Part shown: piece by piece, positions 4,248-6,490 of the stretch
Layout of the letters: the number at the start of each line of letters is the position of its first letter
Position numbering within the stretch: position 1 is the first letter of the stretch
Assembly: GCA_965238275.1 (NCBI GenBank)
Contig: OZ250186.1
Coordinates: 2,152,669-2,216,668, forward strand
Direction of reading: 5' to 3'
Source of the DNA: Nitrosopumilus sp.
Lineage (GTDB): Archaea; Thermoproteota; Nitrososphaeria; Nitrososphaerales; Nitrosopumilaceae
DNA length: 64,000 bases
Program-made: the position numbers and the translations under genes
The notes under the pieces: generated by a model
The model's database searches: none
Told to the model about the DNA's origin: nothing
What the model saw: the letters and a program-made list of their open reading frames with translations, nothing else

Positions 4248-4564
4248 ACTAACAGTTTGTACAGTATGCTTAAAAATAGATGCCATGGCAGATGGCACCC
4301 ATACCCCGGAACTGACGCGGATCCGGCATCACATAGCCTGCAGGCCAAACCGCACCATGCCGTAGGACGTATTGGACTCACGGATTCGTGCGATCCGGAG
4401 ATACGGCGCATGCCAAATCCCTTTATTGTCATGGAACCGCACACACACATAGAGACAGTCACATGACCAAGTGCGGGGTGATGAGTAGGTCGACTGAAAC
4501 GGGATGTGGAGACATGACCTGGGGTATTTGACTGCATTAGGTTATGCCGTGTTTGGGTTCTGTA

Positions 4565-6050
4565 GTGAAAAGCGAAAGTTCGTGCAATTTTTTGGATCCC
4601 TTTTTAAGAAAACAAATTCTATCCACATACATGATTGTCAGCAAACGCGTTACGATAATGCAGTCTCGGGAATTGTCACGCAAGATTGTAAAATGTTCCC
4701 TGGAAACAGACGTCGTTTACGACATGACCATACTGATGAAACTGGCCCATCCCAAAATGACCCAGTTTGACGTGAACAACCTGATAACTGGCTGGCGCAA
4801 AGAATTCAACCTGACCAACAGCGTCCGCATGCATGAGGCCGCGTCCAAGCAGGCCCTCCAGTCGGTAATCAAATTTAAGAAATCAAATGTGAAAAAACAC
4901 GCAAAACGGATCTGGCGCAAGAAGCAGATAAAGCTCGGCAAGGCCAGAACGTACAGGCACAACAGGTGGACGGATCCGTCCAGCCTGATGAGGCGCGGCA
5001 AGAAGACAACCAGGCTGCGTTCGCTGAATTCGCGCGGAAAGCCAAAACTGCGAGACGACGGCACGGTGTTCCTGCCCGGACTCGGAGGGGTAAGGCCGCG
5101 CACGGAGATCCCCGAAGGCAGGTTTGTGTCGTTCCAGATGATCGACATTACAAACAAGGTCACGCGCAAGACCAATGACGGTGATCGCAGGTTCAAACTG
5201 CATTTGCAGGTAGAAGTTCCAGACCCCGAACCAGCTGCAGGCTGCAAGGCAGGGATCGATCTGGGCGTCAGGCACCTTGCGGCAGTCGCAGACGAGGACG
5301 GGAACGAAAAACTGTACAATGTTCCTGGCGGGTGCAGGCGTCACGACGGCGACAAGATTGACCGGTTGAAGTCACGCCGGTCAAAATGCGTGCGCGGTTC
5401 GCGCAAATGGGGAAAGGTCGGCCGCATGATACAACGTGAATTGAAAAAGATATCCGACAGGCAGAAACACAACGAAACGGGCATTGCCAGGCGGATAACA
5501 AAAGGCCTGTCTGCGGTATTTTTGGAAGACATGGATTTGACCAGGATGAGGAGATCCAACGGAAAGGCACCAAAGACCGGGTTGAACCGCGAGATGGCAT
5601 ACTCTAGGATGGGGGAGTTTCGGAGCCAGGTTGAATGGCAGATGAAAAAGAAAGGCGGAGTTTCAAAACGCGTGGAATACAAGAATACCAGCCAGAGGTG
5701 TGCTGTTTGCGGAACTGTGGACAAAAAGTCCAGAAACGGCGAATCCTTTGCCTGCACTGCATGCGGGTGGTACCACCACGCCGACAAGAACGCGGCAAAA
5801 AATATTTTGGATAATGACTGCCTCCACATGGGGGCTGGCGGCCAAGCCCACAAAAACAGTGGAGGCACCATTGCAGGTGTCAAGGTCGTCACAAGGCGCG
5901 AGGATCACGGTTCAGGCAGTCCTGCAAGGGACAGCTTGACAAGTCGGCTTGGACCCGACAACGATGATTTTGGAAGATCTGACAGAGCGCCGGAAAGGGC
6001 ATCAGGGCATGCTACGGAGAAATCTGTTTGCACAAACTTTCGCTCGCCGC
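4565..6050 (+). mobile_element. Putative non-autonomous TIR element carrying tnpB (IS630/mariner-like ends)
   Basis: TA|GTGAAAAGCGAAAGTTCGTGCAA (4565-4587) versus reverse complement of 6028-6050, GCGGCGAGCGAAAGTTTGTGCAA, followed by TA; 18/23 identity, inner 16/17. Confidence 0.65.
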
Positions 6051-6112
6051 TATGGTACCAGTCACACTGCAGAGCCAGAACCCAGACGGCCCGCATAAGG
6101 AACCGCCAATAG
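4631..6112 (+). CDS. tnpB: RNA-guided endonuclease TnpB
   Basis: RuvC-I GIDLGVRHLA, RuvC-II FLEDMDL, zinc finger TSQRCAVCG...CTACG, RuvC-III HADKNAAKNI; TTTTTAAG TATA-like box ~25 nt before ATG 4631. Confidence 0.93.
   Translation: MIVSKRVTIMQSRELSRKIVKCSLETDVVYDMTILMKLAHPKMTQFDVNNLITGWRKEFNLTNSVRMHEAASKQALQSVIKFKKSNVKKHAKRIWRKKQIKLGKARTYRHNRWTDPSSLMRRGKKTTRLRSLNSRGKPKLRDDGTVFLPGLGGVRPRTEIPEGRFVSFQMIDITNKVTRKTNDGDRRFKLHLQVEVPDPEPAAGCKAGIDLGVRHLAAVADEDGNEKLYNVPGGCRRHDGDKIDRLKSRRSKCVRGSRKWGKVGRMIQRELKKISDRQKHNETGIARRITKGLSAVFLEDMDLTRMRRSNGKAPKTGLNREMAYSRMGEFRSQVEWQMKKKGGVSKRVEYKNTSQRCAVCGTVDKKSRNGESFACTACGWYHHADKNAAKNILDNDCLHMGAGGQAHKNSGGTIAGVKVVTRREDHGSGSPARDSLTSRLGPDNDDFGRSDRAPERASGHATEKSVCTNFRSPLWYQSHCRARTQTARIRNRQ
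5810..6070 (+). ncRNA. Putative omega/reRNA of TnpB (scaffold to ~6050, flank-derived guide after)
   Basis: Inferred from position: ~240 nt between RuvC-III and the right end; the translated tail is non-conserved; structure not computed. Confidence 0.45.
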
Positions 6113-6490
6113 TCATCACATGCAGCAGTGGCAGATGCCAAGACATGGTTCTGATGAACGGTGCATAAAAGCAGTCGAGTGTCACATCAGGCAGATTCTG
6201 CACAAGGCAGGCATGCTGCAGGGGATACAGCATCAGGCCACAGGCATGGCATTACAGGAATGGAAGGGGCAGACGCCTCTAACACGTGGCGGCAGGCCGT
6301 GCAATTTGGATCCACAAAGTATTAGTAGTACCGTACTATACAGTACCATATGATTCGATGCCAGCACTGCACCATGCCATTCACGGCAACTGCAGACGGG
6401 ATGGCCGAAAAGACATTTCATGAGATTCTCCACGGTCCCAAAGTAGTCAACTAGCCCAACTCTTTTATGATAATTTTTTTAATGGAATGC

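Follow-up and report, generated by a model that had tools for sequence, protein, structure and literature searches.

The 64,000-nt stretch of the Nitrosopumilus sp. genome analysed here (contig OZ250186.1; hereafter the window) carries a tnpB gene enclosed by terminal inverted repeats. The whole element occupies positions 4563-6052 (1,490 bp); it is framed by terminal inverted repeats of 25 nt and contains an intact tnpB together with a 3′ region that covaries and resembles an omega RNA. An original prediction, made from the sequence of the window, had described it as a non-autonomous element moved in trans by a DDE transposase. We followed up this prediction in the genome to which the window belongs (G000), a single contig of 2,216,668 bp that is 99.92% complete, and in related genomes.

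A single long open reading frame (ORF) spans window positions 4544-6112. Alignments of the copies and of homologues place the conserved start of TnpB at the ATG at 4631 (MIVSK...), which gives a protein of ~480 amino acids matching the Pfam families PF07282 Cas12f1-like_TNB (3.2e-16) and PF01385 OrfB_IS605 (6.5e-15). In an alignment with 15 homologues (A1), the RuvC residue D210 and C357 are invariant, while E299, D385, C360, C375 and C378 are nearly invariant. The gene therefore joins the RuvC D-E-D triad and the zinc finger to the OrfB_IS605 and Cas12f1-like_TNB architecture by which TnpB is recognised, and is intact as first proposed. Measured against three diverged copies, the ratio of nonsynonymous to synonymous substitution rates (dN/dS) is 0.16-0.17 over 390 codons, indicating at the level of codon substitution that the TnpB protein is under purifying selection. 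The nearest named natural relatives with solved structures are the mimivirus TnpB-like protein L79 (5e-22 in a profile search) and ISDra2 TnpB (3e-20). A wider search of representative sequences, made without genomic context, returned 22,634 relatives with E values no higher than 1e-3 and 212 with values no higher than 1e-30, and a scan of viral contigs found one distant locus with 24% identity.

The element is highly repeated. Beyond the window copy, a DNA search of G000 found 17 rows covering nearly the whole element, several more copies split by insertions and a tail of fragments; a motif search counted 22 left and 24 right ends, that is about 22 copies. When the ends of 18 copies are aligned, conservation starts at C-TATAGTGAAAAGCGAAAGTTCGTGCAA on the left and stops at TTGCACGAACTTTCGCTCGCCGCTATA on the right, with unrelated flanks beyond, so that the boundaries are indeed shared with other copies, as the original prediction expected. 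An ORF of at least 474 amino acids is retained in 12 of the 16 copies compared in full. The copies of the main subfamily are 97-99% identical to one another, an identity that indicates a recent spread. The copy at G000:C1:1779807-1781325 is an example of a young one.

The inverted repeat itself is the longest of the region (I1, arms at 4556-4587 and 6028-6059 in the repeat search). In the window copy its arms agree at 18/23 positions, the value noted before, or at 20/25 once the terminal TA is counted. It is not a product of chance, because the same ends bound the other copies and the inner 17-mer of the copy consensus is a perfect inverted repeat; with its 25-nt arms and shared copy ends, the element has the terminal inverted repeats of IS630/Tc1-mariner transposons. 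Just inside the left end, a TATA-like TTTTTAAG (TTTTAAG in one copy) is found at the same spot in 16/18 aligned rows, an insertion displacing it in one remaining row, and a similar TTTTTAAG stands at the matching position in a tnpB family of a second genome (family 1 of G017, described below). This box and the start codon had been placed inside the left repeat; both lie within the left end of the element, beyond the 25-nt repeat.

The sequence CTATA is present at both junctions, which left three readings: the duplication could be 5 bp long, the sequence could be a fixed crossover core, or TA alone (2 bp) could be duplicated beside an element with TAG...CTA termini. Three empty sites decide between them. 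At the window locus, the ortholog in the related genome G146, whose left flank is 92% identical, reads gggttcTG-gtgccagtca, and the occupied window counterpart reads gggttcTG-TAG...CTA-TGgtaccagtca. For a second copy (c316), the G146 ortholog reads aagatcCTGgtggcc where G000 has aagatcC-TA-[element]-TA-gtagcc. For a third (c708), a paralogous gene reads GGTA-CTG-GCTGTC and the occupied site GGTA-C-TA-[element]-TA-GCTGTC. All three empty sites thus contain C and one dinucleotide where the occupied sites carry two; therefore the target duplication is 2 bp long and the element proper is TAG...CTA. The CTATA sequence as a 5-bp duplication or crossover site is thereby ruled out. The three empty sites read C-T-R-G; the target preference of IS630 is CTAG. 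At the window site, the element is likewise missing from G017 and from 13 other relatives. We also sought empty sites in G146 for copies c1779 and c1935, where the matches end hundreds of bases short of the junctions.

The duplicated dinucleotide is TA at 21/22 left ends; the window copy, with TG, is the exception. The original prediction was accordingly right that a 2-bp duplication flanks the element and wrong about its identity: the TAs at 4563-64 and 6051-52 that it took for the duplication are the outermost two bases of the element itself. For the same reason its predicted empty site (GGGTTCTG-TA-TGGTACC) was off by one dinucleotide, the G146 site carrying TG, and its length of 1486 bp gives way to the 1,490 bp defined by the empty site. 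The TG duplication accounts for the window junctions CTGTAG...CTATG. It also accounts for the length of the ORF. In 10/17 other aligned copies, the stop codon (TAA or TAG) is made of the duplicated TA and the first base of the flank (A or G), and therefore the C-terminus differs between insertions. In the window copy TG abolishes this stop, so the frame runs on to 6112 and its last 20 codons (6053-6112) are read-through into flanking DNA. The features of the element are collected in Table 1.

Table 1. Features of the tnpB element and its junctions (positions in the window)
Feature	Position	Strand	Basis and remarks
Candidate transposon-adjacent motif base C	4560	+	Left flank, directly 5′ of the left duplication; flanking DNA according to the empty sites
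Left 2-bp target duplication, TG here (TA in other copies)	4561-4562	.	Single TG in the G146 empty site
Left terminal inverted repeat TAGTGAAAAGCGAAAGTTCGTGCAA	4563-4587	+	Repeat search and copy alignments; with the flanking dinucleotide, 16-21/27 against IS630-A termini
TATA-box-like TTTTTAAG, ~23 nt upstream of the start codon	4601-4608	+	Presumed tnpB promoter, from its conserved position
tnpB ORF; conserved protein stops at the element end, 6052	4631-6112	+	Pfam, copy alignment, dN/dS
Omega-RNA-like structured region (approximate bounds)	5820-6049	+	Overlaps the tnpB 3′ end and the right repeat; RNAalifold covariation
Right terminal inverted repeat TTGCACAAACTTTCGCTCGCCGCTA	6028-6052	+	Repeat search, copy alignments, comparison of 27-nt termini
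Right 2-bp target duplication TG	6053-6054	.	G146 empty site

At the locus itself we note that the interval of G017 orthologous to window ~4550-6320 (L063, G017:C1:1403200-1405400) holds a different insertion of ~1.6 kb with a long ORF. The intergenic stretch of the window may be an insertion hot spot.

The last ~240 nt of the element are conserved beyond what the protein requires: against three diverged copies, the synonymous divergence (dS) is 0.32-0.35 in this part versus 0.68-1.03 upstream, the part to which the dN/dS of 0.16-0.17 given above applies. For 10 sequences from three families, RNAalifold finds a common structure with 56 pairs, 23 of which show compensatory changes. Paired cells reach 96.1%; shifting the partners by 1-3 columns lowers this figure to 34-49% and yields 3-5 compensatory pairs. 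Structure prediction and covariation count were made on the same alignment. The final helix uses GCTC within the right repeat, so that the predicted scaffold extends to the end of the transposon, as it does in TnpB systems already known. A structured 3′ RNA reaching the right transposon end, as expected of TnpB/OMEGA systems, is thus predicted here on the strength of the covariation and the shifted controls. Rfam had no family matching window 4400-6400 at E values up to 1.

Next, we looked for an enzyme that could move the element. The complete G000 genome has no match to the Y1 TnpA profile (PF01797), which the same search found in 6/14 control genomes, and none to the serine recombinase profile (PF00239 Resolvase), found in 12/14. 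The original prediction had noted the lack of either enzyme beside tnpB; this absence extends to the whole genome. The insertion-sequence load of G000 is very high for 2.2 Mb, with 306 repeated regions of ~300 bp or more, among them IS66, IS5-like, rve and two IS630 families. Pfam assigned the representatives of 20 repeated-ORF families to IS66-type (4), DDE_Tnp_4/DDE_Tnp_1 types (5), rve-type (2) and DDE_3 (2) transposases, and gave no match for 7.

One of the DDE_3 families, here called IS630-A, has ends resembling those of the tnpB element. Its transposase (L050, 354 amino acids) is a single ORF combining a helix-turn-helix (HTH) domain with DDE_3 (PF13358, 7e-21), and adjoins two weak matches of the tnpB repeat motif. 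Four full IS630-A copies end in TATA[C/G]TGACG[C/A][G/T]CAAAAGT... on both sides, and one copy lies within a (GTA)n run whose repeat phase is kept across the TA duplication. Over 27-nt termini, the tnpB elements and IS630-A match at 16-23/27 positions, which is as close as the match between the two ends of the copy IS630-A1 (21/27). An unrelated control family, IS630-B, matches at 4-10/27. A search with the 17-mer of the terminal repeat, allowing up to 3 mismatches, gave 51 matches in the genome, located at tnpB-family ends, at IS630-A ends or, with 3 mismatches, at a handful of isolated sites. An IS630 transposase with the same terminal repeat, sought in the original prediction as the partner, thus exists as IS630-family DDE_3 elements with matching inverted repeats in the same genome.

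The same association recurs in the second genome. G017 has two tnpB families of its own, 59% and 47% identical in amino acid sequence to the window protein and of the same architecture, and both have IS630-A-like ends; those of family 1 match IS630-A3-type ends at 23/27. IS630-A transposase ORFs without an internal stop number one in G000 (G000:C1:1873267-1874328) and three in G017. A DDE_3 transposase with termini matching at 16-23/27 is therefore co-resident with the tnpB elements in both genomes, and may recognise their ends.

Taken together, we consider the segment 4563-6052 to be a non-autonomous IS630/Tc1-mariner-type transposon with tnpB and an omega-RNA-like region as cargo, moved by the IS630-A DDE_3 transposase, and put the probability of this reading at roughly 80%. 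We observe directly how the element is built, that a 2-bp duplication flanks it, that TnpA is missing, that a matching DDE element is present and that the arrangement recurs in G017, and the shared ends, empty sites, IS630-A and lack of TnpA agree with what the original prediction proposed. Mobilisation in trans is what we infer from them.

The cycle that we propose would run as follows. The element inserts at C-TA-S sites (C-TG-G in the window copy) and duplicates 2 bp on doing so; an RNA-guided nuclease module replaces the transposase as cargo, and the predicted RNA scaffold extends into the right repeat. The transposase of the co-resident IS630-A elements, whose termini are near-identical, would cut and paste the tnpB element. 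The omega RNA would take its guide from the DNA just past the right end, so that TnpB could cut the empty allele (C + TA + right flank) left behind, and repair from the occupied sister chromosome would restore the element. The outcome would be a cut-and-paste element kept at its old site while gaining a new one.

Several points weigh against this account. Mobilisation in trans would rest on co-residence and on the similarity of the ends. Just one IS630-A transposase is intact in G000, and the ends of its element differ from those of the tnpB elements at 4-9/27 positions. The strict C in the left flank (see below) is not accounted for by the transposase, IS630-A being flanked by C at about half of its ends. 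A cut-and-paste break can already be repaired from the sister, so that it is harder to see what TnpB contributes here than in IS605 (discussed in a review, PMC13565253). Finally, the window copy forms a lineage of its own, with 78-82% identity to each of the others, and has a non-canonical TG duplication. Its site is occupied in contigs from 4 sequencing runs of 4 studies with no clean empty allele; both occupied junctions are bridged in the contigs of 3/4 runs, and the right one only in the fourth. Therefore nothing shows that the window copy itself is still mobile. One run also contains a joint from 4537 to 6402 with a 23-nt side, which resembles the arrangement of a relative and was not used.

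Alternatively, the IS630-like ends could be inherited from an ancestral IS630 element, with another agent in place of the resident IS630-A transposase now spreading the copies, such as a lost or unrecognised transposase or recombination triggered by TnpB. The ratio of one intact transposase to ~22 tnpB copies, the 4-9/27 differences between the ends, the 7/20 repeated-ORF families without a Pfam match and the left-only C absent from IS630-A insertions would all fit. Nevertheless, the tnpB elements and IS630-A have in common the 2-bp TA duplication at C-TA-S and the TAG...CTA termini, and their pairing recurs in G017, where the ends have diverged together (23/27 between family 1 and the IS630-A3 type). 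We regard this alternative as improbable. Far less probable still are the two families in which tnpB is better known. IS200/IS605 is the usual family for tnpB, and each arm contains a small palindrome, CGAA-NN-TTCG, so that the inverted repeat could be read as the subterminal hairpins of an IS1341-type element transposed as single strand by a Y1 TnpA. The complete genome has no PF01797 match, three empty sites show a 2-bp duplication, and the 25-nt arms are reverse-complementary well past the 4-bp palindrome and match the ends of a DDE element. This origin is contradicted on each count and, in our view, extremely unlikely. The original prediction had named as its alternative an IS607-type element, for which a serine recombinase would cross over at a 2-bp core; the conserved CTATA at both junctions and the 2-bp repeat could be taken for such a core. 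We reject it, giving it almost no weight: no PF00239 match exists in the genome, the ends are symmetrical and IS630-like, and the window copy has TG at both junctions with its TAG...CTA termini kept, which fits a duplicated target (TG or TA) and not a fixed core.

Returning to transposition by IS630-A as the preferred explanation, the flanks of the elements show an asymmetry of their own. Immediately 5′ of the left duplication stands a C at 22/22 left ends in G000, and at 6/6 and 8/8 in the two tnpB families of G017, where the bases on the right are mixed; this amounts to 36/36 insertions across three Nitrosopumilus families. Viewed in reverse complement, the 24 right ends of G000 have C in 10 cases, G in 9, T in 4 and A in 1 (Fisher p = 1e-5 versus left). 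A T at position -3 is enriched on both sides (18/22 left, 13/24 right), and therefore looks like a preference of the transposase. The IS630-A flanks, read by eye, have C at about half of the ends.

Because the empty sites contain the C, it is flanking DNA and not part of the element. Its strictness is tied to the tnpB cargo and to the left side, which is where one would expect a transposon-adjacent motif (TAM) once the empty site is rejoined (C + TA + right flank). In Fanzors, according to a review, the 5′ duplication forms part of the TAM. We tentatively suggest, at somewhat less than even odds, that the left flank base would be the whole TAM, with the guide starting inside the duplicated target. 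If so, TnpB would act as a retention filter on cut-and-paste DDE transposons, since only insertions behind the appropriate base would be restored after excision, and the distribution of insertions that remains visible would bear the mark of the nuclease, whose specificity the integrase of the transposon does not share. A TnpB with a one-base TAM would also be of interest to genome editing.

A comparable asymmetry is seen in a distant tnpB family (28-33% amino acid identity) of a Cenarchaeum-titled genome, G163 (L100-L114). This family resides in a different element of ~1.8-2.6 kb, with inverted repeats GGGAATTAYATA... and a variable 8-bp target duplication (7-8/8 positions matching in 11/12 cases). 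G stands directly 5′ of the left duplication in 11/11 cases; on the right, in reverse complement, the counts are C4, G3, T2 and A2. Under the one-base reading, the last base of the element (A in CTA, C in TTCCC) would shield occupied sites from self-cleavage. When we searched for a partner transposase with G163-type ends, the 13-nt terminal motif occurred at 33 sites. Its convergent pairs are spaced by 1.8-2.2 kb, which corresponds to the length of the tnpB elements, and no pair encloses anything longer, so that no partner transposase was seen. A contig titled Dehalococcoidia bacterium (L109) carries a tnpB with up to 79% DNA identity to the Cenarchaeum family, which points to transfer between co-occurring organisms or to a binning error.

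TnpB genes borne by IS630 elements are already in print, so the novelty implied for the window element does not hold. Altae-Tran et al. 2023 (PNAS, PMC10691335) describe a 'DDE-6' branch of TnpBs with an IS630-family DDE transposase, a separate HTH protein and symmetrical ends. They infer that solo tnpB copies within DDE-type ends are moved in trans, report that the elements appear recently mobile, and raise a possible link between IS630-encoded TnpBs and Fanzors; a 2026 review (PMC13565253) repeats the account. Like DDE-6, the window element has tnpB within symmetrical inverted-repeat IS630 ends and the tnpB 3′ end near the right end. Unlike the described DDE-6 tnpB, which lies in cis with the DDE and HTH proteins, the Nitrosopumilus elements are ~1.5 kb long with tnpB alone, and their proposed partner transposase is encoded at another place in the genome by one HTH+DDE_3 ORF. 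No cis arrangement of tnpB and DDE occurs among the elements with both ends placed (the G000 copies and the two G017 families). In the main text of PMC10691335, 'Thaumarchae' and 'Nitrososphaer' have no match, and 'TAM' appears twice, both in the Discussion, with no statement on a TAM for DDE-borne prokaryotic TnpBs; the supplements, where the member lists sit, were outside this search. Among the literature searched, no paper paired 'TnpB' with 'Nitrosopumilus'.

The element can also be placed beside other systems. With Fanzor1 on eukaryotic Tc1/mariner and other terminal-inverted-repeat transposons it shares a TnpB-family nuclease as cargo of a DDE transposon, inverted repeats, a TA duplication and a guide RNA scaffold, here predicted, abutting the right end (PMC13565253, PMC10711439). 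Unlike Fanzor1, its protein is a compact prokaryotic TnpB of ~480 amino acids, about equally near to ISDra2 TnpB and mimivirus L79 by profile search rather than by tree. It resembles IS630/ISY100-type insertion sequences in its DDE_3 transposase (here elsewhere in the genome), short inverted repeats and TA duplication, TA being the target duplication of IS630 according to a review; it differs in that the tnpB elements have no transposase and show the strict left-only C absent from IS630-A insertions. Solo elements of the IS1341 group of IS200/IS605 likewise combine tnpB and an omega RNA (here predicted) with many copies and no transposase inside. That group is described as having no inverted repeats, no duplication and a dependence on Y1 TnpA (PMC13565253), whereas the window element has inverted repeats and a duplication in a genome without Y1 TnpA.

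According to the same review, the association of TnpB with DDE transposases is rare in prokaryotes and of unclear benefit. Why a cut-and-paste DDE transposon carries an RNA-guided nuclease is a question that G000 and G017 make testable. They offer a compact natural system, in which ~22 copies with exactly defined ends can be studied alongside one intact transposase as the likely partner, three empty sites, a guide-RNA scaffold predicted from covariation and a sharp one-base flank asymmetry. An arrangement described in outline in 2023 is unusually clear in this archaeon, and extends IS630-borne TnpB to marine ammonia-oxidising archaea.

Some minor observations concern the tnpB copies and the surroundings of the window element. 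A stretch of ~57 nt is common to three tnpB copies (G000:C1:828605, 2148252 and the single-copy tnpB at 501220-502605), where it replaces the outer part of the left repeat; it could stem from a different mobile element, as one of its ends, or from recombination at the left end. Upstream of the window element, a block of ~80 nt (window 4467-4546) is 75-83% identical in 13 relatives compared to 65-70% for the neighbouring gene. The block, which could encode a small RNA or act as a regulatory site, had no match in the Rfam scan of 4400-6400 described above (E up to 1). Finally, the genome contains 13 matches to a miniature inverted-repeat transposable element of ~95 nt whose inverted ends read GAGACATAATCCGTAAT. 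Identity is 96-100% for 12 of these matches, and the miniature element is inserted in three tnpB copies outside the window (G000:C1:615467-615571, 643115-643219 and 1821616-1821722).

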